A DNA stretch of 64,000 nucleotides from a phage: the sequence record OR896157.1. The stretch is one strand, 5' to 3'. The stretch's first letter is position 1; every line of letters begins with the position of its first letter. The translations under genes and the position numbers were made by a program. The notes under the pieces were generated by a model. That model made no database searches and had not been told where the DNA came from. It saw nothing but the letters and a program-made list of their open reading frames with translations. Below are positions 1 to 62,869 of this stretch, piece after piece.

Positions 1-155
1 CTCTGATTCAGAGGACGACCTAAATCATTCTTAATTCCGATTTCATTCAAAAATGCAATAAAATGTTCACGTTTTTCAAGAATGTGTTCAGAACCAAATT
101 TAATCAATACAGAAGCCACAGTAACAATTTCGCGAACAATTTCAATTTTAGACAT
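1..155 (-). CDS. hypothetical protein, N-terminal part only (gene runs off window start)
   Basis: ATG at 155-153 preceded by AGGAAA RBS; frame open to window edge; translation MSKIEIVREIVTVASVLIKFGSEH... Confidence 0.45.
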   Translation of the reverse strand, partial: MSKIEIVREIVTVASVLIKFGSEHILEKREHFIAFLNEIGIKNDLGRPLNQ

Positions 156-190
156 ATCAAGTATTTCCTACGACTTAATGGATTGAGGAT

Positions 191-219
191 ATAGTAACAC
201 AGTCAACGGTGAATGTAAA
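191..219 (-). promoter_or_regulatory. early sigma70-type promoter (TTTACA-17-TACTAT, TGn extended -10)
   Basis: minus strand ccgTTTACA, 17-nt spacer, TACTAT; sits between ORF 223-480 and the gene starting at 155. Confidence 0.55.
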
Positions 220-222
220 CGG

Positions 223-480
223 TCAGTTCACCACTTCCCAGCGTTGAAGTACATGGCCAGGTAAAGTTACGTATTCGTCACCAGAGTCATAGCGAATGGC
301 GTAGCGACCATCAATCAACTCAGCTGATATATACCATTCGGCTCCTACTACACGAACCCTACGTTTCATCCAGTGACAAATCTCCATGGCCTCTTGATAG
401 CTGTAATCTACCATGTCACCAAGTGCAAGCTTGTTCATCATTCCTTCGAGATAGCGTTGAATCTCTACTGTCTGGTTCAT
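223..480 (-). CDS. hypothetical protein (85 aa)
   Basis: minus-strand ORF in operon context; no motif recognised. Confidence 0.45.
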   Translation of the reverse strand: MNQTVEIQRYLEGMMNKLALGDMVDYSYQEAMEICHWMKRRVRVVGAEWYISAELIDGRYAIRYDSGDEYVTLPGHVLQRWEVVN

Positions 481-830
481 TAAATTTTCTCGTAATTGAT
501 TTTCAATTCAAATTCGTCAGCAACACCTTTGAGAAATTGATAACCTTGCATGACATCAGCAATACTACGCTTAGAACTTACAGTGAAATAACAAAATGTT
601 TCTTCACTTGCTTTTATTTCGCAATGAGTGAGTAGAGATTCTGGATGATTAACAGCATTTACAAATTTTTGAAATGTTGTATCTTCAAAATATTTCCAGG
701 AGCAATCTTGCTCTTCTCGGCTCAAAGAGAACCATACCACAAGATTATACACAGGAGTTATTGCATCTACAACACTGGTGTGTTCATCCCATGCTTTACG
801 TTCTGCTTCGATATGAGAAATTTTATTCAT
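480..830 (-). CDS. hypothetical protein (116 aa)
   Basis: minus-strand ORF, start overlaps stop of upstream small ORF; no motif recognised. Confidence 0.5.
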   Translation of the reverse strand: MNKISHIEAERKAWDEHTSVVDAITPVYNLVVWFSLSREEQDCSWKYFEDTTFQKFVNAVNHPESLLTHCEIKASEETFCYFTVSSKRSIADVMQGYQFLKGVADEFELKINYEKI

Positions 831-913
831 AATCTTTTCCCTTATGTTTTTGCTTACGACGAGATTCTTTTTCCTGGCGCTTCATATCTTTATGAGCGCC
901 GCCTTTATTGAAA

Positions 914-1219
914 TCATGCTTTGCTACTGGATTGTTCATCTTGTTCCTCGAGTTTCTTAATTTGGCGTTCAAGTTCTTTAATCATTTCAAGGTTAAGCAT
1001 AACATAATATTGTGCAAACAATGGCTTAATGGTTCCATTCCACATCCATGGATCATTATTAATTGTCAGCTTCTTCACGACAGCTTCTGATAACCAAGAC
1101 CAACCTGATTCGTTTGTTAATGAAGTCCATTGTTCATGCATCATCTCATTTGCTTTTTTAAGAGCGTTGATTTGATTACGCATAGATTCAATTTGAAGCA
1201 ACTTAATATCCATTTTCAT
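914..1219 (-). CDS. hypothetical protein (101 aa), predicted coiled coil
   Basis: minus-strand ORF, 1-nt overlap with upstream gene. Confidence 0.5.
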   Translation of the reverse strand: MKMDIKLLQIESMRNQINALKKANEMMHEQWTSLTNESGWSWLSEAVVKKLTINNDPWMWNGTIKPLFAQYYVMLNLEMIKELERQIKKLEEQDEQSSSKA

Positions 1220-1647
1220 TAGTATAAATCCTCGGAGAATAATGTATCAGCAGGCCCACTTTTAACACGACGAGTATTAATTTGACCAGCATGAGTTGCA
1301 ATGATTAATGCTTCTTTTCGAGTAAAATAATTTCCCCATTGGTCCAAGAACCCTTGGTCATCACCATAAACCTGTTCAGAAACCACTTTATCACGCGTTT
1401 GGTCTAACACCAGAGCCATATCTTTTGAATAATGACGAGTCCCTGGAATAACTAACTCTCCGCCATCTTTCAATTTAAAACGATTAGCTGCACAGACGAT
1501 AACTCGTTGAAGTAAACGACCATCCCACCAATCGGCTTTAACGAAACAGATTTCAGGAATCCGTTCATTGACATTCTGAGTTTCGATTAAATCACCGTTT
1601 TGAGCTGCTTCTACAAATTTATTCATTTGTTCTGAAAATTTGCTCAT
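1219..1647 (-). CDS. hypothetical protein (142 aa)
   Basis: minus-strand ORF, coupled to neighbours. Confidence 0.5.
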   Translation of the reverse strand: MSKFSEQMNKFVEAAQNGDLIETQNVNERIPEICFVKADWWDGRLLQRVIVCAANRFKLKDGGELVIPGTRHYSKDMALVLDQTRDKVVSEQVYGDDQGFLDQWGNYFTRKEALIIATHAGQINTRRVKSGPADTLFSEDLY

Positions 1648-2048
1648 TTGAAGAATCCTTTAATTTTCTGCCAGATTGTTTTTGGTTCGCGGAGACCCCA
1701 AGTACGAAGTTCAGGTTCTTTAGTAACTTCTTTAATCCATTCTTCTGTTGCTTTAATTTCATCATAGGCGATAACCACCGCACATGAATCTATGAATTCT
1801 GCGAGTGCTTTCATGAAGTTAGAATGTTCACCGCAGTGACGACCATGAGAACTATAAACTGCGTAAACATTTTTAGCTTTAAGTTCAATACTGCCAAGAT
1901 GTGTTCCACGGAACCAGACTTCCCATGCATCGGTTGGCAAATAGTACTTATCAGTTACTCGTTCAATACAACGCTGCAGTTCATTCAAAGCTTCTGGACG
2001 ATTCATTAGCTTTTTAACACGAAGTACATGAGAGTTTAAGTTTTTCAT
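1644..2048 (-). CDS. hypothetical protein (134 aa)
   Basis: minus-strand ORF, 4-nt overlap with downstream gene. Confidence 0.5.
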   Translation of the reverse strand: MKNLNSHVLRVKKLMNRPEALNELQRCIERVTDKYYLPTDAWEVWFRGTHLGSIELKAKNVYAVYSSHGRHCGEHSNFMKALAEFIDSCAVVIAYDEIKATEEWIKEVTKEPELRTWGLREPKTIWQKIKGFFK

Positions 2049-2062
2049 CTTTAATTTCCTTA

Positions 2063-2707
2063 TTACAGAGTGTCAACAGCGTGGATGATGTTTTCAATGT
2101 TTTCCTGAGTACGTGGAATGTCCAGGTATACATTGCCATTTTTGGAATGTTTAGCAACCATTCCGAGGTCTTCGAAGTGTTTAACTTGTTCTTCAGTCAT
2201 TTTGTAACCGGAGATACGGAAGTTACCTTTGTTTGATACCTCGAAGCTGCGAATACCGAAAGTGCGTTTTTCGAGTACCGCGATGAAGTTGCTACGATAG
2301 ACGTCCAGTTTTTTGATTGTGAACAGATTATCTTTGGTTGCCAGCAGTTCCATCATCAGATTTTTGTCTGCTTCCATCTGGTCAGTAATCGGACGAGCTT
2401 TACGAGTGTTACGTTTTTCTAGAAGTTCTGGTGCATTTTCTTCTGCGTAGATAACTGCTGCCTGGTTGATGATTTCTTGACCTTCAGCAGATACAATCAG
2501 ACCATCACCTGATTTTTCAATCAGACCTTTCTTAATCAGAACACCGATGTTGCTGTTAACTGAAGCAGCTGAAAGTTTATCTGCGAGAATGTCACGAACT
2601 TCGGAAGAAGTGATGAAGTCTTTCTTAGCGACTACAATCAGAACGTTTGCAGCATTTTCAGAGATAGAGTTTTCAGAAGCTTTAACGATATAGATTACTT
2701 TAGACAT
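2063..2707 (-). CDS. motA: MotA, activator of middle transcription
   Basis: translation from ATG at 2707 (GGAGAAA RBS) begins MSKVIYIVKASE...VLIVVAKKDFITSSEV...NSNIGVLIKKGLIEKSGDGLI, matching remembered T4 MotA; lies beside gene 52 as in T4. Confidence 0.8.
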   Translation of the reverse strand: MSKVIYIVKASENSISENAANVLIVVAKKDFITSSEVRDILADKLSAASVNSNIGVLIKKGLIEKSGDGLIVSAEGQEIINQAAVIYAEENAPELLEKRNTRKARPITDQMEADKNLMMELLATKDNLFTIKKLDVYRSNFIAVLEKRTFGIRSFEVSNKGNFRISGYKMTEEQVKHFEDLGMVAKHSKNGNVYLDIPRTQENIENIIHAVDTL

Positions 2708-2745
2708 TTTGTTTCTCCAGGTTCCGTATTTGTTTTGATGAGATA

Positions 2746-2774
2746 ATAGTATCAAACTTTTAAGCCGATGTAAA
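2746..2774 (-). promoter_or_regulatory. early promoter (TTTACA-17-TACTAT)
   Basis: minus strand aaccgTTTACA, 17 nt, TACTAT; immediately upstream of motA. Confidence 0.55.
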
Positions 2775-2816
2775 CGGTTAGTTTAGCATCTTCCGAAAAA
2801 GATGCTATCAAACAGC

Positions 2817-3110
2817 TTAGCCTCGGAAGAAGTCCGCGAAGAGCTTCTTAGCTTCGTTTAGAGTTTCTGCCACATCTTCAACTTCTGCATCAAGCACTGC
2901 AGTCATGTCATAGTTGTTGACGTATACCCATACCAGCACGTAGTTTTCGCTTTCGCTGTTATACCAAATTGTCAGATAGCTATTGCTATCAGTGTTTGAT
3001 GAGTGCAGGCGTGCTGCATGCATTGCGTCGTCAAGGTCAACACCTGAGTTAGCCAGTAAAGCATTTAAGTTATTGATTAAAGTTTCCATAATTTCCTCAT
3101 TTTGCAACAT
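2817..3110 (-). CDS. hypothetical acidic protein (97 aa)
   Basis: minus-strand ORF. Confidence 0.45.
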   Translation of the reverse strand: MLQNEEIMETLINNLNALLANSGVDLDDAMHAARLHSSNTDSNSYLTIWYNSESENYVLVWVYVNNYDMTAVLDAEVEDVAETLNEAKKLFADFFRG

Positions 3111-3360
3111 AAGCTTCTAAGACTTCTTCAAATTCGCCTTCAAGTTCAGGGCATCCTGCGAAGTCCGCCTCTAAAGTTTCTAAATCAATCAGAACTTCAG
3201 TTAAAATGTATTGACTTTCATTATGGTCATAAACCATAGCCCAATAACGTGCTTGAGTATTCTTGTCAATTGACATTCTGTTAAATTTAACATAAGCGAA
3301 ATCAGAAGTTTCCGCGATAATACCAGCATTTGTTAAGGCAGCAACGATAATTGAAATCAT
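3097..3360 (-). CDS. hypothetical acidic protein (87 aa)
   Basis: minus-strand ORF downstream of an early promoter. Confidence 0.45.
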   Translation of the reverse strand: MISIIVAALTNAGIIAETSDFAYVKFNRMSIDKNTQARYWAMVYDHNESQYILTEVLIDLETLEADFAGCPELEGEFEEVLEAYVAK

Positions 3361-3391
3361 TTTGTTTACTCCGTTTGGTTTTGATAGAGCT

Positions 3392-3420
3392 ATAATACCA
3401 TAAGCAAACGATGATGTAAA
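3392..3420 (-). promoter_or_regulatory. early promoter (TTTACA-17-TATTAT)
   Basis: minus strand aaccgTTTACA, 17 nt ending TGG, TATTAT. Confidence 0.55.
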
Positions 3421-3490
3421 CGGTTGAGTTAAAGAATTTTTAAAGTTAACCAGAACGGTTGAGGGATTGTGCGTAGAAAGGATGATTAAT
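3421..3490 (-). repeat. promoter-upstream module, copy A (shared blocks gtaaacggttga / ccagaacggttgag / aaggatgatNaat)
   Basis: same three blocks in the same order recur at 54507-54575 upstream of another early promoter. Confidence 0.5.
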
Positions 3491-3496
3491 TATATG

Positions 3497-3522
3497 GACT
3501 CGGCTCTAGAATTAACTAGAGC
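3497..3522 (-). terminator. stem-loop downstream of gene 52 (GGCTCTAG-loop-CTAGAGCC)
   Basis: perfect 8-bp inverted repeat just after the gene 52 stop; no clear U-tract. Confidence 0.3.
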
Positions 3523-3545
3523 CGTTTAGAGTGATACAGAAGCTC

Positions 3546-4925
3546 TTAGAGAGCCTCTAGGTCCTTCATATACTCAATTTCTGGAGTAGTTTCTTGCCAG
3601 TACTTCAGCTCAGCTTTCAGGTCTTTAGCTTGTTGAGCAAGTTTCTTTGCTTCGTCACTTGTGATGTGATAGATGTTCATTGACACTAACTTGTCAACAA
3701 ATGGTGCATAAGTTGGACGAGATTCAAGTTCAGAAGTCAGTTGTTTACGAGTTTTGCCTTGAATGACAATACTACCTTCAATAACTTCTTTGATGAACAT
3801 CGCTTTAGCCAAAGCTAATTTGAATGCTTCATCGCATTCTTTGACTTTGTGTTCAATTCGTTTGACAATGTAAGTCTTACGAACTTCCACAAAGTGCTTG
3901 ATAAGTTCAGAAGAACTTTGGAACTTATCGTTTAACTTTCCGTTTTCATCAATGACCACGATGAATTGAGACATCTTCTCAACCAATTTGAAGTCACGCA
4001 TGATTTTCTCATGCCGCTGCTCATCGTCTTGGCCAAGCATATAATCTTTCTTGAACTTCACTTTAAAGCCAAAGCCGGTCTTTGAACAATCATCAACGTA
4101 AGAGATGAAGTTCTTATCTACCATTGGCTCAAGTACTTTTTCCACATAAGTTTCGCGGTCAAACTTAGCTGGAATTTCGCTGATGTACATTTGAGATGCT
4201 GAAGTGAACTTATAAAGACCACGGCATTCAATTGACCCATCTTCAAGACGAACTACTTCACCGCGGAATTGTGGAATTTGAACTTCTGGTTCTTTATCCA
4301 GTTTTCCTTGAAGAGCTAATTTAGTACATTCAACTACTGATTCAAAATTATGTGGAAGAATCTTAGTAGCATAACCAGTTGCAATTCCCTGTACACCGTT
4401 CAGAAGGACGGTTGGAATAATTGGAAGATAGAATGCAGGTGGAACGTGCTCTTTATCTTTATGCTCTGGAGCAATTTCAGTGTCTTTATAGACCTTACGG
4501 AAATTGTCAGAAATACGACAGAAGATATAACGAGATGCTGCCGCTTTTTGTACCAATCGTGAACCGAAGTTTCCTTGACCATCCAAAAGAGGATAGTTGT
4601 TGTTCCAAGTGTTAGCCATAAGCGCGCCAGCATCTTGTGCCGAGCCTTCGCCATGGTGATAACCGAGGTCAGCAACACCACCTGCCACAGAAGCCAATTT
4701 ATGGAATTTTTCTTTATTACCACGAGACAAATCTAGTGCACGAGCAATAACAAATCGTTGAACTGGCTTGAAGCCATCAATTAAGTTAGGAATTGCACGG
4801 TTTTCTACTGTGTAGATTGCAAATTCTTTGGCTTCATTGTCAATGATGCTTTGAAGGTTTCTTACATTAAGTTGACCAACAGAGTCATCGAGTTGTTTAG
4901 ACATCATGTCAAAAATAGTTGTCAT
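3546..4925 (-). CDS. 52: DNA topoisomerase II medium subunit gp52 (GyrA/ParC-like)
   Basis: 459 aa; contains IPNLIDGFKPVQRFVIARALDL and LDGQGNFGS topoisomerase motifs; matches remembered T4 gp52. Confidence 0.9.
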   Translation of the reverse strand: MTTIFDMMSKQLDDSVGQLNVRNLQSIIDNEAKEFAIYTVENRAIPNLIDGFKPVQRFVIARALDLSRGNKEKFHKLASVAGGVADLGYHHGEGSAQDAGALMANTWNNNYPLLDGQGNFGSRLVQKAAASRYIFCRISDNFRKVYKDTEIAPEHKDKEHVPPAFYLPIIPTVLLNGVQGIATGYATKILPHNFESVVECTKLALQGKLDKEPEVQIPQFRGEVVRLEDGSIECRGLYKFTSASQMYISEIPAKFDRETYVEKVLEPMVDKNFISYVDDCSKTGFGFKVKFKKDYMLGQDDEQRHEKIMRDFKLVEKMSQFIVVIDENGKLNDKFQSSSELIKHFVEVRKTYIVKRIEHKVKECDEAFKLALAKAMFIKEVIEGSIVIQGKTRKQLTSELESRPTYAPFVDKLVSMNIYHITSDEAKKLAQQAKDLKAELKYWQETTPEIEYMKDLEAL

Positions 4926-5246
4926 ATTACCCTACCAGATTAAATTACCGATGTTCATCATAACACGAGCAAGAAAAAGCACTATTTCGCCCATCACATA
5001 AACAGCTCCGGCTAAAGCGCCGGAGAGTAATATTGACACACCAATAACGCCTATTGAGAGTTTCATTTTATTAAGCCTGTGTAATAGAACAAACGTTCTA
5101 CAGCTAATGCAGCTACACCAAAGCACATGCTTCCAATGACTCTTGGCGGAGGGGTTAACCCCTCCCAAATAAACAGACCAGAAGCGATGAAAAGCGGAGC
5201 CATGAGCAAGAACACCAAAGCCCAAATCTGTTTGAACGGACTCATA

Positions 5247-5693
5247 TTAATATGCCTGAAGAATAAATTTGAAGTTATCATTCAACATGCGATTCATTTC
5301 TTCCAGGTTCTGATAAGAATCGTTATGTTTACGTGTGAATGCCAGCGCCAATTGACCTTTACCAAAACCAGTAGTCAAAGGCTTCATTTTATCAGCCGGA
5401 ACGAAGTACACATCGTAGATGACGTTATTTGAACGCATAGTACGACCAAGCTGAGAACGACCCTGACGAATCTGCGACAGAACATTCATAAAGCCAGATT
5501 TTGAACGTTGACGACCAACGTAGAATCGTGCTGCTACTGCACGCCAAGCTGAAGCGCCTTTAACCATGAAGTAGAAACCAGGTTCAGCCAGAATAGATGG
5601 GTCAACATACCCTACAGTTTCACCATTTTTAACAGTACACACAACAGTTGCACCAACAGCTTCAAGGTCACCACGAGTCATGTAATCACGCAT
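5247..5693 (-). CDS. ndd: Ndd nucleoid disruption protein
   Basis: from ATG at 5693 (GAGGAAAA RBS); C-terminal half ...[45 protein letters not shown] matches remembered T4 Ndd almost residue for residue. Confidence 0.8.
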
Positions 5694-5730
5694 ATCATTT
5701 TCCTCAATCAATTAAAAGTTTATCCTCAAT

Positions 5731-5744
5731 GGGCCCGAAGGCCC
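5731..5744 (-). terminator. GGGCC-CGAA-GGCCC hairpin between small ORF and ndd
   Basis: GC stem with CGAA loop; weak U-tract, so may act as RNA stability/processing element rather than terminator. Confidence 0.3.
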
Positions 5745-5748
5745 TGAA

Positions 5749-5958
5749 TTAAAGTTCTGAACTTTGCTGAGCCCCATTCCACAGAACTTCTACTACACTC
5801 TTGAGTCCATCAGCTTGTACTGCTTGGACAATTTCAATAGTAGCCCAGATGCTAAAACCAATTCCAGCAACAATTAGAACAACTACAACAGAAAAGAAAA
5901 TCCAGAAAATCTTTTCCATTTTATCCATACGAGAACCAAATGTAGTCTTGCGACGCAT
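5749..5958 (-). CDS. small membrane protein (69 aa)
   Basis: hydrophobic segment FWIFFSVVVVLIVAGIGFSIW; ATG with GGAAAA RBS. Confidence 0.45.
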   Translation of the reverse strand: MRRKTTFGSRMDKMEKIFWIFFSVVVVLIVAGIGFSIWATIEIVQAVQADGLKSVVEVLWNGAQQSSEL

Positions 5959-5968
5959 AATATTTTCC

Positions 5969-6088
5969 TCAAAAGTTAATCCATGCCATTACTACATCAT
6001 GTGCTAAGGCAAATGCGAAAGCTCCAAAGAGCATCATCAGAAGAGTTAAAGTCCAGATAGCTTTAAGAATCTTTTTGATGATGTTCAT
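5969..6088 (-). CDS. small hydrophobic peptide (39 aa), not in ORF track
   Basis: ATG at 6088 after GGAGAA RBS; MNIIKKILKAIWTLTLLMMLFGAFAFALAHDVVMAWINF; stop abuts start of next ORF. Confidence 0.35.
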   Translation of the reverse strand: MNIIKKILKAIWTLTLLMMLFGAFAFALAHDVVMAWINF

Positions 6089-6115
6089 TTTGTTCTCCGT
6101 TAGTTGATTTCTAGT

Positions 6116-6730
6116 CTATAGTATACCATTAAACGGAGAATGTAAACGGCAGAGATTAAAAAGATTTAGATACCAGCCCTGATAGTTGCTCTTACGAACC
6201 ACGGATTTGAGGTCTTCGTGGTCTCCAGCAAACTTTAGGGTAAACTGGTAAACACCAGACGAACTTTCTACTACATCTAATATGATAATACAGTCCGCTA
6301 CTCTGTGTGTCAAGAAGGGTCCTAGGTTTATCCCTGAGCCACCAGGATAGTCTCCTGAGTAACCAGTAGTGACTGAAATCCACTTTGAATCTGACTGATG
6401 AGTCTTGACCTCAATGCGAAGTCCGCAGAATCTTGGATGAGCAAGAACATCCCAGGCGTATGTGTAAGGGTCGTCATGATTTTCCTGACCACCTGCAACA
6501 TAACCATCCATCCAATCTGCTACAGTTCGTTCAGCAAGTTGAGCAATTTCACACCGCTTGTTTACAAAATCTTTATCTTGGTCTGGGTCTTGACGAAGAG
6601 AATAAGCGGCAGTACTTTTGATTTTGACTCTATCTTCTGGTGTTAAATCACTGAATGACCGGGTAAAAGTCTTCAGGGCTTTCAGTCTCATCAACCCTGG
6701 ATTCGATTTTTTCATATTCACCTTCTTCAT
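6116..6730 (-). CDS. hypothetical protein at the T4 denB (endonuclease IV) position; start uncertain
   Basis: ORF between ndd and rIIB as denB is in T4; several in-frame Met candidates (6745, 6730, 6715, 6691); T4 DenB sequence not recalled, so call is positional only. Confidence 0.4.
   Translation of the reverse strand: MKKVNMKKSNPGLMRLKALKTFTRSFSDLTPEDRVKIKSTAAYSLRQDPDQDKDFVNKRCEIAQLAERTVADWMDGYVAGGQENHDDPYTYAWDVLAHPRFCGLRIEVKTHQSDSKWISVTTGYSGDYPGGSGINLGPFLTHRVADCIIILDVVESSSGVYQFTLKFAGDHEDLKSVVRKSNYQGWYLNLFNLCRLHSPFNGIL
6118..6146 (-). promoter_or_regulatory. early promoter (TTTACA-17-TACTAT)
   Basis: minus strand tgccgTTTACA, 17 nt, TACTAT; overlaps 3-prime end of the denB-position ORF and drives the small membrane ORFs and ndd. 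Confidence 0.5.
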
Positions 6731-6977
6731 TTTTGAAAATAGCATCTGTCACGTGTAAAGTGCCATAATAGATTCTGTCATTATGATTGAGTTTGCTTAA
6801 ATCAAGCTCTTTCAACTCATCTTCTGGCATGATTACTACATCATCACAATACAGACAACCCGATGCTTTATTATCTCCTGCGAATAGGTCTTTACAATAA
6901 ACAACACCTACATAATGATTACCATGTAAGTAACTATTTTTAATGCTTTTATCGCCAATATTCATTGGATTAATCAT
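6648..6977 (-). CDS. hypothetical protein (109 aa), denB.1-position
   Basis: ATG at 6977 after GAGGAA RBS, directly downstream of the rIIB terminator hairpin. Confidence 0.5.
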   Translation of the reverse strand: MINPMNIGDKSIKNSYLHGNHYVGVVYCKDLFAGDNKASGCLYCDDVVIMPEDELKELDLSKLNHNDRIYYGTLHVTDAIFKNEEGEYEKIESRVDETESPEDFYPVIQ

Positions 6978-6984
6978 GGCAGAT

Positions 6985-7014
6985 TCCTCAAAAATAAAGG
7001 GCCCGAAGGCCCTT
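6985..7014 (-). terminator. intrinsic terminator-like hairpin after rIIB (AAGGGCC-TTCG-GGCCCTT then U-rich)
   Basis: minus strand reads hairpin followed by UAUUUUU. Confidence 0.5.
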
Positions 7015-7017
7015 ACA

Positions 7018-7998
7018 TTAGATGTATGAATCAGTTTCTTCGTTGTATTCCGCTTCACGGATTACTTTGTACTGACAAGTACGCATTTTAGCGTTGTTGT
7101 AATCTACCGGGATAGATACTACATCTCGTGGATGTACTTTAACAACTACCAGACGAGAATCACCATAACGGAAGTGCTTGATGTAACTACGAGCGCAAAC
7201 ATGCAGACCAGCTTCACAGGTGAGATTTTCATCTTCAACCACATGAGTACGAGGCATTTTAACTACTCGGCCAACAGAGTTATCAAACTTACCGGTATAG
7301 CAGTCAGTGTAATCGTTGCGAATAACTTTCCATGCCAGGAAATGACCATCTTCAGTGATTTCGATGTCGTTGGCTTGGAGGAAGTCAAACAGACGAGTCA
7401 CTGCAGTTTTGCTTGGGTTTTCCAGCAGATTTTCCAGGAACGGCAGATAGAATTCAAAATCTTCACCATTCTGCATATCATTGATGATGCGGTCAACCAG
7501 ACCAGATTTGATTTCAATGTCCTGGTAGAACAGCTGACCATTTTCAATGCGAATGTTACCGTCAACATAAGAAGTAATTGCCTTCTCAATGTTAATCAGA
7601 TTAATTGCTTCTTCAAATTCGCCATCAACACACAGCTGAAGAGCTTGTTTGAAGTTCGGATGGTCTTTATCTGCTGCATAGGTATCACGACCATAAGTGA
7701 TAGACAGGAACTTAGAAGAACCGGCCCATACAACATCTTCTGGTCTGAATGGATTAGTTGCAGCTTGACTGATTGCATTAGTTTCTGCAATTTTTGCAGC
7801 TTCAGTATGACCAACAACAGCTTCAATACCAACTGAACTAGCAGCTTTAATTTCTTTGATTACTCGACGCACTGTGTCAACAGAACAGCTGAAGAATTTT
7901 GCGACTTCTTCCTGAGTGTAACCACCCATATATGCATCATAGATTTCACGCTTTTGCGCTGCATCAAACATTTTAACAACAGAGACTTTCTTACTCAT
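7018..7998 (-). CDS. rIIB: RIIB protein
   Basis: ATG at 7998 (GGTGA RBS); central block SGLVDRIINDMQNGEDFEFYLPFLENLLENPS...EITEDG...KVVKMPRT...KVHPRDVVSIPVDYNNAKMRTCQY matches remembered T4 rIIB. Confidence 0.85.
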   Translation of the reverse strand: MSKKVSVVKMFDAAQKREIYDAYMGGYTQEEVAKFFSCSVDTVRRVIKEIKAASSVGIEAVVGHTEAAKIAETNAISQAATNPFRPEDVVWAGSSKFLSITYGRDTYAADKDHPNFKQALQLCVDGEFEEAINLINIEKAITSYVDGNIRIENGQLFYQDIEIKSGLVDRIINDMQNGEDFEFYLPFLENLLENPSKTAVTRLFDFLQANDIEITEDGHFLAWKVIRNDYTDCYTGKFDNSVGRVVKMPRTHVVEDENLTCEAGLHVCARSYIKHFRYGDSRLVVVKVHPRDVVSIPVDYNNAKMRTCQYKVIREAEYNEETDSYI

Positions 7999-10204
7999 CT
8001 TCACTTTCACCTTTTAAGGAAGGAGCGCTTTCCAGCGCTCTCATAATACGGGAAATATCTTCGGCATAATTAGCTACACGCCATTCGTTTAGCATATGCT
8101 CGATGACAGGATATTCTTTCTCAAACTTTTTGAATGCAGCATCTACTTCAGCTGAAGCAGCATCCGTGAGTTTATTATAAATCCGAACACATAAAGCTAA
8201 ATCTTCACGAATCTGTGAAGAACCATCAGGACTTGCCGTGATATAAGTGTTCTTCAGGTTGCGTCCGATTTCATTGATACGAGATACTCGCTCACCGTTA
8301 TCTTTGCCAGTAATGAACTTCAGCAGCCACTTTAACTCAGGAGTATTGATGATGTTACTTACAACACGACGGTTAAAGAATGTAGATGGCAGATATTCAT
8401 CAGCATCCAGGTCATCAATAATCTTGATGAATTCATCAACAATGAAACGGTCCAACGATTCAAGATTATCATTTAATTTAGCAACCTTGGCCGAGTTCGG
8501 ACGAATAACGTAAAACTCAGTTACGCCTAGTTCTTTCGCCATATTTCGAATAGTTTCAATATCTACGCCAGACCACCACAGTTCGTCAGGGAAAGTACGA
8601 ATCTCATCGCGTGAACGGAAAATTGCATAACCTTCAAGTTCCGCAATATCGTCCTTATTCATGAAGAGGTCTTCAGAAGTCCACCAACCACCTTTAGCAT
8701 CTAACTTATGCAATTGGCCGTTTGGAGATTTTGGACGCGGTCCACCATCACCTTTAGATGAGTTTGAGTAATGCTCTTTCTCAAACTTACGGTATTCTTC
8801 CATCTCAGAAGACTTCAGAATAATGATTTCGTCTTGGTCAAACAGTTTAACGATTTCATCTTTAATCTTCATATGCTTAGGTTCTTCTGGATTAAGCATA
8901 ATGAAGTTAGCATAACGATGAAAGTCTTTCAGATACATTCCGCGGAACATTGCTGCGCGACGTGAAGGCTTATCATCAATCATGATATGCACTTTATCAT
9001 TCTGAACATTCAGCAGACTTGTCACCGACATACGCTTTCTTGTGGACCACGAAGATGTTAAACGCCAGCGCTCAGAATCAATGTTTACACGGTAAGTATA
9101 AATCATTGCATCTTCGATTTTCTTTTGAATATTGTCAGTATTATAAACGTTACACCATTCAGCATAAGTCTTATCACCAAACATGATGTTCTGACGATTC
9201 AGAATAGCGCGCTGGTTTGAATCAAATTGAGACAGCTGACGAACTAACTCACGCTTATTCTCAATAGACTGAAGATGCGCAATATCAGCTTCAAGAGTAG
9301 CTTTTTCTAAGCTGTTAACACGTTTCTTGATGTTCTCAATTGTGACATCGTCCAGCGAAAGTTCTTCACGAGATGGAGTGATATCCAATTCGCCAAGAGG
9401 GAAATTGACGTAAACACATCCATAACGATTCAGAAGCCAAGAACATTCAAGACCTTGGAATTGGTCAATCGGATAAACAATCTTACCGTAAACCGCATAC
9501 AGACCACGACTATCTTTTCCAAATCCATTAGGAGAATGGAACCACTCTACATCTTGTGGGAAAGATTCAATGTTAATGCTTGCGCCAGTGATGATTGGCT
9601 TAACTGGCATAGGACGCATTACATAAGCAATTTCATACGCAAATTTTTCTACATCTTCAAGACGAACAGGAACCGTAATTTCAATACCAGTCTGCTCACC
9701 TTCTTTCATTGGTTCAACAAACAGAGGACGAATATCAGGTTCACCATTGTTCATCACAGCCATGTAACCGCGAGCTTCACCCTCGTGATAAGAAACGATA
9801 GTGAATGACTTTGTGTAGCTGAATGGAGATTTTGAACCAAGACCCAGAGCACCGATGAAATCGTTACTTTCAGCTTTTGTCGAAGCAAAGTAGCTATTGT
9901 ACAGACCAGGTTCTTCGTCATTACCACGAATCTGGAAATCACTCATACCTGGGCCAAAGTCACGAATAATGAATCGCGGGTCTAACTTATTCGGACACTT
10001 GATTTCACACGGAACATCTTGCTTTCCATTCAGAATGTGAGCATCAAGCCAGTTAGTTGTAAGCTCACGAACAACAGCACGGATTTTATTCTTATAGAGC
10101 TTATCAGACAAAATCATAAAGGCCTTTGGAGAGGCCTGAATGGTGAATTTAGTTTTCTTACCAGCAGAACCTAAAACTTCTTCATTATCAGCAATTAATT
10201 TCAT
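7991..10204 (-). CDS. rIIA: RIIA protein
   Basis: 737 aa; N-terminal block KIRAVVRELTTNWLDAH...DFGPGMSDF...LYNSYFASTKAESNDFIGALGLGSKSPFSYT matches remembered T4 rIIA. Confidence 0.9.
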   Translation of the reverse strand: MKLIADNEEVLGSAGKKTKFTIQASPKAFMILSDKLYKNKIRAVVRELTTNWLDAHILNGKQDVPCEIKCPNKLDPRFIIRDFGPGMSDFQIRGNDEEPGLYNSYFASTKAESNDFIGALGLGSKSPFSYTKSFTIVSYHEGEARGYMAVMNNGEPDIRPLFVEPMKEGEQTGIEITVPVRLEDVEKFAYEIAYVMRPMPVKPIITGASINIESFPQDVEWFHSPNGFGKDSRGLYAVYGKIVYPIDQFQGLECSWLLNRYGCVYVNFPLGELDITPSREELSLDDVTIENIKKRVNSLEKATLEADIAHLQSIENKRELVRQLSQFDSNQRAILNRQNIMFGDKTYAEWCNVYNTDNIQKKIEDAMIYTYRVNIDSERWRLTSSWSTRKRMSVTSLLNVQNDKVHIMIDDKPSRRAAMFRGMYLKDFHRYANFIMLNPEEPKHMKIKDEIVKLFDQDEIIILKSSEMEEYRKFEKEHYSNSSKGDGGPRPKSPNGQLHKLDAKGGWWTSEDLFMNKDDIAELEGYAIFRSRDEIRTFPDELWWSGVDIETIRNMAKELGVTEFYVIRPNSAKVAKLNDNLESLDRFIVDEFIKIIDDLDADEYLPSTFFNRRVVSNIINTPELKWLLKFITGKDNGERVSRINEIGRNLKNTYITASPDGSSQIREDLALCVRIYNKLTDAASAEVDAAFKKFEKEYPVIEHMLNEWRVANYAEDISRIMRALESAPSLKGESEDE

Positions 10205-57290: not shown

Positions 57291-58268
57291 TTATTTCAGC
57301 ATAGTTACTTCAGCAATTTCAGTCCAGTTTTTCTCGTCAGTAGCGACGAAATCTGCCAGGTAAAGAGCTGTGCGGAGAGATACATTACGAAGACGATTAA
57401 CGTTGTTTTGCATAAATGCCAGAACGTCAAGTACTTGGTAGTGTTTTAATCCGCGATTTTGCAACATGTCGGTTGTCATAATAACATCTTCAACGCGAGA
57501 CATGATTTCTTCGTTTGTGTGAACTCCGAGGTCCAAATAAACAGAACGAGATACTAAAGCAGAAAGATGTGGAGCTAATTTGCTGCCGCGTTCTAATTCT
57601 TTATCAATATCAACGTTAGTGATGAATACGACAGTACCTTCAAATTCAAATTCGTTTGGAATATCTTTTTCTTCCAGGAAAGCAGAAGCAGTTGACCAGC
57701 AAACTTTACGTTTTTCGCCAGAATCAAGAGCAGCTTTCAGAAGGTTCAGAATGTCCATATCAGAAAATACATCCACATCGTCAATAAGCAGAACAGAATT
57801 TGAATGACGAGATTCCCAGAGACGGCAGTAAAGACCGATACCAGAAATTTTACCGTTAACCATTTTGTATTCAATATCACCGCGAGCATCTGCTTTAGTT
57901 AATGCTTTATCTAAGGAGAAAGTTTTACCGATACCAGCAGCACCTGAGATAATCAGTGAACGAATGTTCCCGTTAACCAGACCAGCAGTCATTAACCCCA
58001 TAACGTTGAAGCGTTTAGCGATACGTGCTTTCATTTCTTCAACAGATTCGGTCAAAACTTCTTTGACTTCTTGACCTTCAATTTTGTAATCACCGTGGAA
58101 AACCCATACTCCGCGTTTCTTACCATCGATGTTTACGAATACTTTACCATCACCCTGAGCAGCATCAGATTCTGATAAATCTTTTGGGAACCACTCGCCC
58201 AGAAGTTCGAAGGTACCAGAGATTTCTTTACCGAAGTTAGTACCTTTAGCGATAGTGATGGTTTTCAT
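57291..58268 (-). CDS. P-loop NTPase (Walker A/B), AAA+ or DnaC/IstB-like (325 aa)
   Basis: Walker A GAAGIGKT, Walker B LLIDDVDVF; about 100-aa N-terminal domain of unknown type. Confidence 0.55.
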   Translation of the reverse strand: MKTITIAKGTNFGKEISGTFELLGEWFPKDLSESDAAQGDGKVFVNIDGKKRGVWVFHGDYKIEGQEVKEVLTESVEEMKARIAKRFNVMGLMTAGLVNGNIRSLIISGAAGIGKTFSLDKALTKADARGDIEYKMVNGKISGIGLYCRLWESRHSNSVLLIDDVDVFSDMDILNLLKAALDSGEKRKVCWSTASAFLEEKDIPNEFEFEGTVVFITNVDIDKELERGSKLAPHLSALVSRSVYLDLGVHTNEEIMSRVEDVIMTTDMLQNRGLKHYQVLDVLAFMQNNVNRLRNVSLRTALYLADFVATDEKNWTEIAEVTMLK

Positions 58269-59014: not shown

Positions 59015-59032
59015 AACCTCCCGAAGGAGGTT
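59015..59032 (-). terminator. intrinsic terminator (AACCTCC-TTCG-GGAGGTT then UUUGUUGUUUUU)
   Basis: hairpin begins at the stop codon of ORF 59031-59291. Confidence 0.55.
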
Positions 59033-59291
59033 ATTTTGAGTGTTTTTCTAGCTGACGTTCAGCAAACAGCTTTGGCTGCATTAACAACCAACTTAAGATA
59101 CGCCAGATGACTTGTATGACACCGACAGGTAGCCATAATATAATACTAAACAAGTAATTAAAAGGTGTCTCTATGAACCCTCGTTTAACGAGAGCGTTTG
59201 TGATGAGCCACCCGACGGCTAGATAAACCAATACAATAAAGACGGGCATAATCCACCATAGTTGAGCCAAAAGTAAAGTAACCATAATCAC
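59031..59291 (-). CDS. membrane protein (86 aa)
   Basis: hydrophobic throughout, coupled to the NTase gene. Confidence 0.45.
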   Translation of the reverse strand: MIMVTLLLAQLWWIMPVFIVLVYLAVGWLITNALVKRGFIETPFNYLFSIILWLPVGVIQVIWRILSWLLMQPKLFAERQLEKHSK

Positions 59292-60298
59292 CTGTAGTAA
59301 GAGTTGTGGTTCGCCAGATAAACTTCTTCAAGGAACTTGTCCCAGAATGTCATGTCAACTTTATCAGGCATACCGTTTTTAGAAGCGATGATGCTTTGAC
59401 GTTCAACTTCATCTACACAGTTTTCTAACCACTCTTGAACTTCTTTGAATGGAATAGTGCCGGCTTTAACTTTCTTGATGAACTCAGCATCTTTAAGCGG
59501 ATAAACCAAATCACCGGTTGTGTAGATTTCCTGGAGCTGAAGACCACCACGAAGAGCATGAGACAGAGCTTTCCAGTCTACACCTTCGTTAGCTTCTGCT
59601 TTACGAGCACGTTCACCGTATTCGTTCCAGAGCTTAGTAAGACTGTATTTCATTTCGGCAACAGTGATTGTTGTCTGGAATTTACGACCAAGCACGTTGT
59701 AGAACTTCTGAACGCCAGATTTGTGGTCAACAAAATCAGTCCACTCAAGGAACTCTGAAGTTGGAAGCAGATGAGCAATATCAGCAACTTTCCAACGAAC
59801 ATTGTGAGCTTTATCTTTTGGACGGTCTTCGTATTTCCATTCTGGATAAGGCTCTAATACTTCAAGAACTTTACGAAGTTCAGCTAAACGAGAACCTTTG
59901 ACACCATACTTAGCTGCTTGCTTACGAACATAACCAAGATAAGCTTTCATATCGGTGGTGTAGAAACGCCAGCGGTTGTCTTGGATAAATTTCCAGACAT
60001 CAGGCAGGTCAGATTTAACAATCAGATTAGCAGGAGTATGAAGCATATCAAGAGCAACAGTTTCTCCTGACTGAGCGAGTTCCAACCAATACTTGAGAGA
60101 ATAGAGTTCATGGTCAACGTCATCGTGAGAATTCTTTGTTGAAGTGTTGTTAGTATTCATATTAGTATGGTTCATTGCACGACCCATAAGAATATCTTTT
60201 GGGTGTGGAACGAAGATTTCTTTGAAGTCCGTGTCACTTTCTGGTGTTGACGTACCGTAAAGATGGCTACCGAAGTAGCCTTTCATAACTGTTTTCAT
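59288..60298 (-). CDS. Pol-beta-superfamily nucleotidyltransferase (336 aa)
   Basis: N-terminal GS-x10-DxD signature (GYFGSHLYGTSTPESDTDF) with a candidate third acidic residue in VALDMLH; long alpha-helical C-terminal region. Confidence 0.5.
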   Translation of the reverse strand: MKTVMKGYFGSHLYGTSTPESDTDFKEIFVPHPKDILMGRAMNHTNMNTNNTSTKNSHDDVDHELYSLKYWLELAQSGETVALDMLHTPANLIVKSDLPDVWKFIQDNRWRFYTTDMKAYLGYVRKQAAKYGVKGSRLAELRKVLEVLEPYPEWKYEDRPKDKAHNVRWKVADIAHLLPTSEFLEWTDFVDHKSGVQKFYNVLGRKFQTTITVAEMKYSLTKLWNEYGERARKAEANEGVDWKALSHALRGGLQLQEIYTTGDLVYPLKDAEFIKKVKAGTIPFKEVQEWLENCVDEVERQSIIASKNGMPDKVDMTFWDKFLEEVYLANHNSYYR

Positions 60299-60849
60299 TT
60301 AGTCGGTTGACCCCATGTGAATTGACCACCGAAAGCCGCAATCAATGAAGTGTCATTCAGATTAACTGGCAGACCGTCGCCGCTTTCGGATTCGAGGAAC
60401 ATTGTACCACCATTTTTAGTGATAGCAATTACAGTGAATTCTTTAGAACCCTTTTGGAAGACATCACCAACAACTACCGGAATATTTTTAAAACCAGAAG
60501 CTTCCGCTTCATATGTTTCTGTATATCGGCCGTCTTTTGGTCTGAAATTAGTGAAATCAACCAGGTACTTATTACGAATTGAAGTTACATACACATTAGT
60601 AACACCATATGATGTAATTTTATCTTCATCATAAATGAAGAGTTCAATCATTACACGAGTTGAATATACTTTTAAAACAGCTCGTTGATTTTTATTGATT
60701 TTAAGGAAAATATGAGTTGCTCCTTGGCAACGGCTAATAAAATCAATTTCACCATCAAATTCTGTTGTTCCGGATTGAACAGTAATTGAGCGTCCAACTT
60801 CAAGTTCTTTCTTTACAATGCCTTTAGCTTTCACTTGACGAATAAACAT
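60295..60849 (-). CDS. hypothetical protein (184 aa), coupled upstream partner of the NTase
   Basis: ATGA overlap with NTase start. Confidence 0.5.
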   Translation of the reverse strand: MFIRQVKAKGIVKKELEVGRSITVQSGTTEFDGEIDFISRCQGATHIFLKINKNQRAVLKVYSTRVMIELFIYDEDKITSYGVTNVYVTSIRNKYLVDFTNFRPKDGRYTETYEAEASGFKNIPVVVGDVFQKGSKEFTVIAITKNGGTMFLESESGDGLPVNLNDTSLIAAFGGQFTWGQPTK

Positions 60850-60858
60850 AATATTTTC

Positions 60859-61080
60859 CTATAAGAAGCGCCATGAGCCATTACGATATGCAACTGAACG
60901 GTCCATCATTTCGGAAGAGGTAGAACTTCCGCTGAGTTTGTCATGAACTACTGTAATTTTGCGTCCGTCAGCAAAAATAAATTCGGCTACTGGACGCAGG
61001 CCAGTAAAGCCTTTGTCCACAGTTGCATTAAATTTAGCAGATTCACCGTTGATAATATAGTTCTGGTCTTGTTTAAGCAT
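60859..61080 (-). CDS. hypothetical protein (73 aa)
   Basis: minus-strand ORF. Confidence 0.4.
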   Translation of the reverse strand: MLKQDQNYIINGESAKFNATVDKGFTGLRPVAEFIFADGRKITVVHDKLSGSSTSSEMMDRSVAYRNGSWRFL

Positions 61081-61532
61081 TATTTAAATTCCAAAGTTGG
61101 GCAGAACTTCTCTTTGCGAGCTTTAATGAAAGCAATAATGATATTAGGTTGTGGTTCAACGTAAGTACCATTTCTGATAGCTTCCCATTTTTTATCTTCT
61201 TTCTTTTCTTTTCGTCTTTGAACGACTCGATAAATTCCGTAACCAATACAGAAAATTGTACCAAAAATAGCCGCCAACAAAATCCAACCAATAATCATTC
61301 CAGGGACAAATGCTACAGCAGACGAAAGAATCACACCACATTGAGCGAATAACCAAGTAGCTAAATCTACACCACTAGCCCATCCAACAAAAACTACAGC
61401 ACAAACAGCGAATAGCAGGAGGAAAGCATGCCAAACACCTTTCCAAAAATATGGACACAGAGAACGTGGAGCGCTTTCAGCGCCATTCATAGTAACGAGT
61501 TTGTAGTGCCAAGAGTTAGTATTGATTTGCAT
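61080..61532 (-). CDS. multi-pass membrane protein (150 aa)
   Basis: at least three hydrophobic segments. Confidence 0.5.
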   Translation of the reverse strand: MQINTNSWHYKLVTMNGAESAPRSLCPYFWKGVWHAFLLLFAVCAVVFVGWASGVDLATWLFAQCGVILSSAVAFVPGMIIGWILLAAIFGTIFCIGYGIYRVVQRRKEKKEDKKWEAIRNGTYVEPQPNIIIAFIKARKEKFCPTLEFK

Positions 61533-62840: not shown

Positions 62841-62869
62841 ATTATACCATTAACTAAGTTGTATGTAAA
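62841..62869 (-). promoter_or_regulatory. early promoter (TTTACA-17-TATAAT)
   Basis: consensus -10; upstream of the zinc-finger gene. Confidence 0.55.

Follow-up and report, generated by a model that had tools for sequence, protein, structure and literature searches.

The genes considered here lie in a stretch of 64,000 nucleotides of phage DNA (sequence record OR896157.1), hereafter called the window. A preliminary description of this DNA had pointed to two genes placed in the nrdC region: one for a protein of 336 amino acids (aa) with a GS-x10-DxD signature, taken for a Pol-beta-type nucleotidyltransferase (NTase), and one for a 184-aa protein whose open reading frame (ORF) overlaps the former in an ATGA, which was read as the mark of a two-gene unit. 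Both ORFs and their overlap are present as described, on the minus strand. Over 5 kb around this locus, identity amounts to 96-97% with Klebsiella phage KaAlpha, Enterobacter phage PG7 and phages related to them, and to 91.5% with phage CC31; all of these are T4-type phages of the genus Karamvirus. The CC31 record names the gene of the 336-aa protein nrdC.11, with the annotation nucleotidyltransferase, and the gene of a 325-aa P-loop protein nrdC.10. Since related records call the gene nrdC.11 and nrdC.10 lies downstream of it, the placement in the nrdC region holds. The nrdC.11 gene and the parts of its product are located as follows:

59288..60298, minus strand: nrdC.11 orthologue, predicted to encode a 336-aa long-form RlaP-family (PF10127) nucleotidyltransferase (ORF; Pfam and PHROG matches)
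59891..60298, minus strand: N-terminal NTase core, residues 1-136 (stretch matched by the Pfam RlaP profile)
60224..60280, minus strand: GS-x10-DxD signature, residues 7-25, with G10, S11, D22 and D24 (alignment)
60113-60115, minus strand: codon of D62 in 'DVDHELY', likely the third carboxylate
59615..59881, minus strand: insertion of ~85 aa between the two RlaP domains, residues ~140-228 (alignment; Pfam coverage)
59291..59614, minus strand: C-terminal helical domain, residues 229-336 (alignment; AlphaFold model)
59549-59584, minus strand: G239-R250 portion of the motif R230, G239-x-D241-x-K243-x3-H247-x2-R250, the family motif of the C-terminal domain

NrdC.11 and the RlaP family

The 336-aa protein matches a single Pfam family, PF10127 (RlaP, 'RNA repair pathway DNA polymerase beta family'), with a score of 50.4 bits (E 3.2e-13) for a gathering cutoff of 23. 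It also matches phrog_388 ('nucleotidyltransferase') with an E-value of 1e-127. RlaP is a member of the Pfam NTase clan CL0260 (PMC10400998), in agreement with the predicted Pol-beta type. The signature is carried by the peptide GYFGSHLYGTSTPESDTDF (residues 7-25), in which G10-S11 is followed after ten residues by D22-x-D24, and in view of the two family matches it is not a chance resemblance. Homologues of NrdC.11 are numerous, with 2,887 in a large protein collection, and they occur in 1,558 phage records including that of T4, whose protein shows 68% identity and scores 46.6 bits against PF10127.

The match to PF10127 covers about half of the profile, residues 8-136 of the protein corresponding to profile positions 25-144 of 249. 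Such a half-length match is also obtained with the homologues from T4 and from phages MD18 and MS32, and with four relatives from cellular genomes. Three bacterial proteins whose match spans PF10127 in full (positions 2-248), from Deferribacter (338 aa), Bacillus velezensis (256 aa) and Curtobacterium (252 aa), were therefore used as comparators and aligned with phage proteins and proteins from metagenome-assembled genomes (MAGs). Beyond the start methionine, 13 positions are invariant in all nine aligned sequences: G10, S11, G15, T16, S21, D22 and D24 in the NTase core, and R230, G239, D241, K243, H247 and R250 in the C-terminal region. Furthermore, residue 62, located in a 'V-D-x' strand, is an aspartate in eight of the nine sequences, and the general Pol-beta pattern makes it the likely third catalytic carboxylate.

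The alignment also reveals an insertion of ~85 aa that is common to the window protein and the RtcB-linked RlaP of Deferribacter and is not found in the 250-aa RlaPs of Bacillus and Curtobacterium. The PF10127 match stops halfway because this insertion interrupts the family alignment. Since the C-terminal motif is invariant between the window protein and the full-length RlaPs, and since the insertion accounts for the short match, the window protein is, as judged from its sequence, a complete, long-form RlaP.

AlphaFold was run for the NTase on 20 sequences of 66-83% identity. In the resulting model, the C-terminal domain is helical, with predicted local distance difference test (pLDDT) scores of 76-87, and a small three-stranded sheet is found within the insertion (residues 184-208, pLDDT ~85). 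A Foldseek comparison of this low-confidence model with the PDB returned noise only (best E 0.36), and a search of PDB sequences with the NTase profile found no relative. Sequence profiles and conserved motifs therefore form the basis for predicting a Pol-beta fold in NrdC.11.

Scans of the NTase, the 184-aa protein and NrdC.10 against NCBIfam and PADLOC gave no significant match. Residues 223-331 of the NTase (59288-59632) show a resemblance to positions 331-438 of the NCBIfam model of GatB that lies far below the cutoff (15 bits, E 0.006). These positions are part of the C-terminal, tRNA-binding region of GatB, and so weak a similarity serves at most as a hint to the way in which the helical domain might bind tRNA.

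Gene order around nrdC.11 and the 184-aa neighbor

The other features of the locus are located as follows:

60295..60849, minus strand: 184-aa neighbor upstream of nrdC.11, phrog_10164 (ORF; all-beta model)
60295..60298, minus strand: ATGA start/stop overlap of the 184-aa gene and nrdC.11
59031..59285, minus strand: small membrane-protein gene, 84-86 aa, phrog_6166 (starts 2 nt past the nrdC.11 stop)
57291..58268, minus strand: nrdC.10, 325-aa P-loop protein (GAAGIGKT), downstream of nrdC.11
60859-61080, minus strand: 73-aa gene, phrog_6285, upstream of the 184-aa gene
61080-61532, minus strand: 150-aa membrane protein, phrog_944, upstream of the small-gene block
59015..59032, minus strand: terminator-like GC-rich hairpin with UUCG loop and T-rich tail (pattern match only)

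On the minus strand, the frame of the 184-aa protein ends in ACT AAA TGA, and the ATG of nrdC.11 is located at 60298-60296. This junction could be taken to mean that the 184-aa protein and NrdC.11 form a two-component system, in which an all-beta subunit would be in charge of substrate recognition or regulation and translational coupling would set the stoichiometry. We consider such a system unlikely. A positional argument speaks for it: wherever the 184-aa family is detectable, its gene lies 0-3 genes upstream of nrdC.11, as observed in 17 of the 17 phage genomes examined. However, gene order is broadly shared among T4-type genomes and the 150-aa membrane protein shows comparable positional conservation, since the phrog_944 gene lies upstream of the small-gene block in the same 17 phages. 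Moreover, an overlap of 4 nt is commonplace in the window, where a crude gene calling gives it for 20 of the 106 adjacent same-strand pairs (19%), and 41% of the pairs overlap somehow. The downstream gene, which starts 2 nt past the nrdC.11 stop, is as tightly packed as the upstream one. As for the ATGA, it belongs to the start of nrdC.11 itself (ATGAAA...) and recurs with at least five upstream genes that are unrelated to the 184-aa family (phrog_7981 in CC31 and KPV15, gp070 in MP1, ORF111 in ValKK3 and an ORF of a Reyranellaceae MAG).

The two families also differ in their distribution and evolution. The 184-aa family is found in 169 phage records versus 1,558 for NrdC.11, and a hidden Markov model (HMM) search near nrdC.11 detected no member in T4, AS-zj, ValKK3, MD18 and MS32. 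The 184-aa gene abuts nrdC.11 in PG7-like, Kanagawavirus and Marfa phages, but the pair is separated by one gene in CC31, by two in KPV15 and RB43 and by three in MP1. Members of the 184-aa family share 24-47% identity where the NTases share 76-81% and the NrdC.10 proteins 68-80%. Since the overlap is commonplace, the junction recurs with other genes, and distributions, adjacency and divergence rates differ, a dedicated partnership is not supported. The same holds for the two-gene unit deduced from the ATGA overlap, whose second member is undetected in most phages that carry NrdC.11. In practice, later work should not retain the seemingly 'coupled partner' as a system.

Small genes are shuffled inside a fixed frame around nrdC.11. 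For instance, the 73-aa phrog_6285 gene is located upstream of the 184-aa gene in the window and in CC31 and downstream of it in KPV15, and in CC31 and KPV15, but not in the window, a phrog_7981 gene intervenes between nrdC.11 and the 184-aa gene. Three small genes separate nrdC.11 from nrdC.10 in the window. A scan for sigma-70-like promoters found 18 sites versus 17.2 expected, which gives no usable signal of a private promoter, and terminator-like sites (6 versus 3.7 +/- 2.5 expected) are not clearly enriched. These scans suggest a long polycistronic unit, running from a strong promoter-like site near 62869 to the UUCG hairpin (59032-59015), rather than an operon of the two genes alone. This hairpin (59015-59032) has a perfect 7-bp GC-rich stem, a UUCG/CGAA tetraloop and a T-rich tail on both strands. 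Located just past the small membrane-protein gene, it could be a bidirectional terminator-like element.

NrdC.10 was considered as an alternative conserved partner and rejected. It is adjacent to nrdC.11 or near it in T4, Karamvirus, Kanagawavirus and Jiaodavirus, and it is absent from the flanks of 3-4 kb on each side in Marfa, RB43, AS-zj, MP1, ValKK3, MD18 and MS32. The protein gives sub-threshold matches to AAA_22, AAA_16 and a novel STAND NTPase family, and it belongs to phrog_1250, whose function is unassigned.

The profile search proposed for both proteins, which placed the NTase in PF10127 and phrog_388, was less informative for the 184-aa protein: it matches no Pfam, NCBIfam or PADLOC family and corresponds only to PHROG 10164, of unassigned function. 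When 1.84 billion representative proteins were scanned exhaustively with HMMER, only 13 relatives emerged. A profile search gave 16, of which those carried by long contigs are on contigs of phage size (~170 kb). AlphaFold predicts a confident all-beta structure (pLDDT 93.4) with 17 strands and one short helix. A Foldseek search of predicted viral structures (BFVD) with this model uncovered 26 relatives with E <= 1e-3. One is a 1,048-aa protein of a haloarchaeal virus, and the others are uncharacterised proteins (112-204 aa, 11-42% identity) encoded by T4-type phages that belong to many genera. The isoelectric point in the family ranges from 5.8 to 8.6, so that no charge signature is conserved. 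Hence, the 184-aa family is fast-diverging, structurally conserved and restricted to T4-type phages, with no known fold or function.

Two further ideas about this protein were rejected. MobD.1 of T4 (181 aa, encoded just past mobD) is not its T4 counterpart, with an hhalign probability of 0.3% and another PHROG, and an internal duplication of two beta domains was dismissed since BLASTP found no similarity between the halves of the protein. A 1,517-aa protein, P0137, for which no Pfam family was found, contains eight repeats resembling residues 147-182 of the 184-aa protein (E 3e-6). In Edwardsiella phage PEi26, the gene of the 184-aa family is split into ORFs of 60 and 112 aa (4001-4539 of the retrieved locus) that jointly align to the whole 184-aa protein, next to an intact nrdC.11. 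This split suggests a frameshift or decay of the gene.

Proposed role of NrdC.11

The enzyme class to which the window protein is assigned is already known for phage T4. An NTase domain was noted in nrdC.11 as early as 2006 (PMC1524935), and a preprint of December 2025 names T4 NrdC.11 as an RlaP, in cluster 5 of a similarity network (PMC12776372). The same work gives biochemical and structural data on two RlaPs of Pseudomonas, PfRlaP and PaRlaP, that add 1-2 nucleoside monophosphates (NMPs) to the 3'-OH of RNA, with a preference for Mn2+, leave DNA and E. coli proteins untouched and favor the broken anticodon-loop end of a cleaved-tRNA mimic. RlaP treatment before ligation partially rescued the aminoacylation of a tRNA that had lost one nucleotide, and the authors proposed that RlaPs are antidotes to 'smart' ribotoxins, such as RloC, that cut the tRNA and then remove a nucleotide (PMC12776372). 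RloC's removal of the wobble nucleotide had been argued to be able to defeat repair by T4 Pnkp/Rnl1 alone (PMC2610378). The idea of gap filling is attributed to a 2016 paper of Burroughs and Aravind that both PMC7824862 and PMC12776372 cite. The former, a comparison of jumbo phages published in 2021, predicts the same role for phage RlaPs, whose distribution among jumbo phages mirrors that of RNA ligases (PMC7824862). Since both the idea of the role and the family membership of T4 NrdC.11 are published, the window adds another orthologue and not a discovery.

We consider it probable that NrdC.11 is a conditional RlaP of counter-defence or RNA maintenance and that the 184-aa gene, located in the variable nrdC-rI region, is an accessory gene in its own right. 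The likeliest substrate would be a tRNA cleaved in its anticodon loop and subsequently trimmed by a RloC-type anticodon nuclease of the host. The phage Pnkp would prepare the ends, by removal of the 2',3'-cyclic phosphate and 5' phosphorylation, NrdC.11 would presumably replace the lost nucleotide, and sealing by RNA ligase 1 would finally yield a full-length tRNA. The 184-aa gene would be co-transcribed and tightly packed with nrdC.11 and provide no dedicated functional partner. T4 mutants without the nrdC.11-mobD.3 fragment remain viable (PMC9825161), as would be expected if nrdC.11 is useful only under certain conditions.

The genomic context of NrdC.11 and its homologues favors the repair of RNA or tRNA ends over the synthesis of a signaling nucleotide or the modification of proteins. 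PG7, the closest RefSeq relative, encodes both pseT (polynucleotide kinase/phosphatase) and rnlA (RNA ligase 1), so that the enzymes acting before and after gap filling exist in this lineage, unlinked to nrdC.11. In Phaeobacter phage MD18, the NrdC.11 homologue is located inside a cluster of tRNA genes, and in the jumbo Vibrio phage MS32 it is found immediately 3' of the gene of a CCA-adding enzyme. The long-form RlaP of Deferribacter belongs to a same-strand cluster headed by RtcB on megaplasmid pDF308. Among the MAG relatives of the NrdC.11 clade (four contigs), the one locus scanned has metabolic or family-less neighbor genes.

Two of these loci deserve further description. The RtcB-to-RlaP cluster of pDF308 (1-8088 of the retrieved locus) includes four to six hypothetical genes that match no Pfam family, and a toxin-antitoxin pair of the HipA family comes after it; the cluster may represent an RNA-repair island that is as yet uncharacterised. 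In the tRNA cluster of MD18, just upstream of the gene of the RlaP homologue, ARAGORN predicts a tmRNA-like gene (marked '*'; 1938-2346 of the retrieved locus) with the tag ANTNAAPMEMAIAA, for which the MD18 record has no annotation.

Other activities can be envisaged for NrdC.11. It might act offensively, extending intact host tRNA or rRNA at the 3' end by extra nucleotides in the manner of MenT-type toxins and thereby blocking aminoacylation or translation. The gene is indeed located in the early-gene region of T4-type phages, and this region of T4 holds many host-takeover genes. Moreover, when given total E. coli RNA, the Pseudomonas RlaPs labelled species the size of full-length tRNA and rRNA, and they show little NTP specificity (PMC12776372). 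Such a host shutoff is nevertheless improbable: given a cleaved-tRNA mimic, RlaP favored the nicked anticodon-loop end over the acceptor end (PMC12776372), and bacterial RlaPs are encoded in RtcB and RNA-ligase repair operons (PMC12776372; the Deferribacter cluster described above). Furthermore, the location of phage homologues beside the gene of a CCA-adding enzyme and in phage tRNA clusters suggests that tRNAs are maintained, not disabled, because phage translation needs them.

It is less plausible still that NrdC.11 counters host defence by making or modifying a signaling nucleotide, like cGAS or OAS, or by nucleotidylating a protein, like an AMPylase. The Pol-beta NTase superfamily does include cGAS, OAS and CD-NTases (PMC10400998), and the phage clade, with its unique insertion, is not among the characterised RlaPs. 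But no PADLOC model of a CD-NTase or other defence NTase matches NrdC.11 at E <= 0.01, the RlaPs tested act on RNA ends and left E. coli proteins and DNA unmodified (PMC12776372), and the conserved C-terminal motif of NrdC.11 is the RlaP motif. From the list of functions given in the preliminary description, RNA repair or tailing is thus the one favored by the biochemistry of the family (PMC12776372), and no PADLOC match speaks for the signaling nucleotide.

Several observations weigh against a repair RlaP that acts independently of its neighbor. In addition to the positional link of the 184-aa family with nrdC.11, which may reflect a looser functional tie, the NrdC.11 clade carries an ~85-aa insertion to which no role is assigned and matches half of the Pfam profile. 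The mean pLDDT of the NTase model is 66, with values below 50 at residues 1-31 and 42-67; because the underlying alignment is shallow and uniform, this is not evidence against a Pol-beta fold. The RlaPs assayed come from Pseudomonas only and belong to cluster 1a versus cluster 5 for phage NrdC.11 (PMC12776372). The repair model itself is a proposal, and according to its authors untemplated addition gives mostly wrong products (PMC12776372). Finally, pseT and rnlA lie ~85 kb from nrdC.11 in PG7, and nrdC.11 shares no operon with an RNA ligase in T4-type phages, as seen in T4 and in the window, which does not include the ligase region.

The all-beta protein could be a lineage-specific accessory factor of RlaP, or the ~85-aa insertion could confer a tRNA- or wobble-specific choice of nucleotide, a capacity absent from the canonical enzymes; we regard this as quite unlikely. 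As an accessory factor, the all-beta protein could target the long-form RlaP to particular damaged tRNAs or to a particular host nuclease, and the fast divergence of its family would in that case be the trace of an arms race against anticodon nucleases of the host.

If phage RlaPs do restore the nucleotides excised by RloC, a question raised in 2008, that of the reversibility of this damage by phage tRNA repair, would be closed, and gap filling would join the heal-and-seal pathway of T4 Pnkp/Rnl1 as a third step. In practice, the NrdC.11 clade can be treated as long-form RlaPs with a defined insertion. Many NrdC.11 orthologues are mislabelled 'thioredoxin' in GenBank and UniRef, apparently from the gene name nrdC.11, and a few records say 'HNH homing endonuclease' or 'ArsR family regulator' for what is an RlaP-family nucleotidyltransferase.

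Comparison with known systems

Among known proteins, a close counterpart is NrdC.11 of T4 (NP_049709.1), an orthologue of the same length (336 aa each) that is 68% identical over its full length and maps to the same place, with the rI/mobD side on one flank and nrdC.10 on the other. The gene order differs: in T4, the upstream gene is that of the homing endonuclease MobD, with an overlap of 17 nt, and nrdC.10 directly follows nrdC.11, whereas the upstream gene in the window is the 184-aa phrog_10164 gene.

With PfRlaP and PaRlaP, the window protein shares PF10127 and a plan consisting of an N-terminal NTase and a C-terminal helical domain. It also shares GS, DxD and G-x-D-x-K...H...R, a comparison made through the RlaPs of Bacillus, Curtobacterium and Deferribacter and not with the Pseudomonas sequences themselves. 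Unlike the Pseudomonas genes, which are located between rtcB and rtcA, the phage gene adjoins no ligase, and its product carries the ~85-aa insertion.

CCA-adding enzymes also belong to the Pol-beta superfamily and add nucleotides to tRNA 3' ends without a nucleic-acid template, an activity that NrdC.11 would share. They nevertheless form a separate family, to which the window protein shows no match in the Pfam scan. Furthermore, the CCA enzyme rebuilds the acceptor end with a defined specificity, whereas RlaP discriminates little among NTPs and acts preferentially on the broken end of the anticodon loop (PMC12776372).

Finally, the role proposed for RlaP belongs to the same biological conflict as that of Pnkp and Rnl1 of T4, the counter-defence to PrrC. 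Pnkp and Rnl1 heal and seal the ends but cannot replace a missing nucleotide, and NrdC.11 is genetically unlinked to both. The 3'-OH end left by RlaP suits the chemistry of 5'-phosphate ligases such as Rnl1 (PMC12776372).

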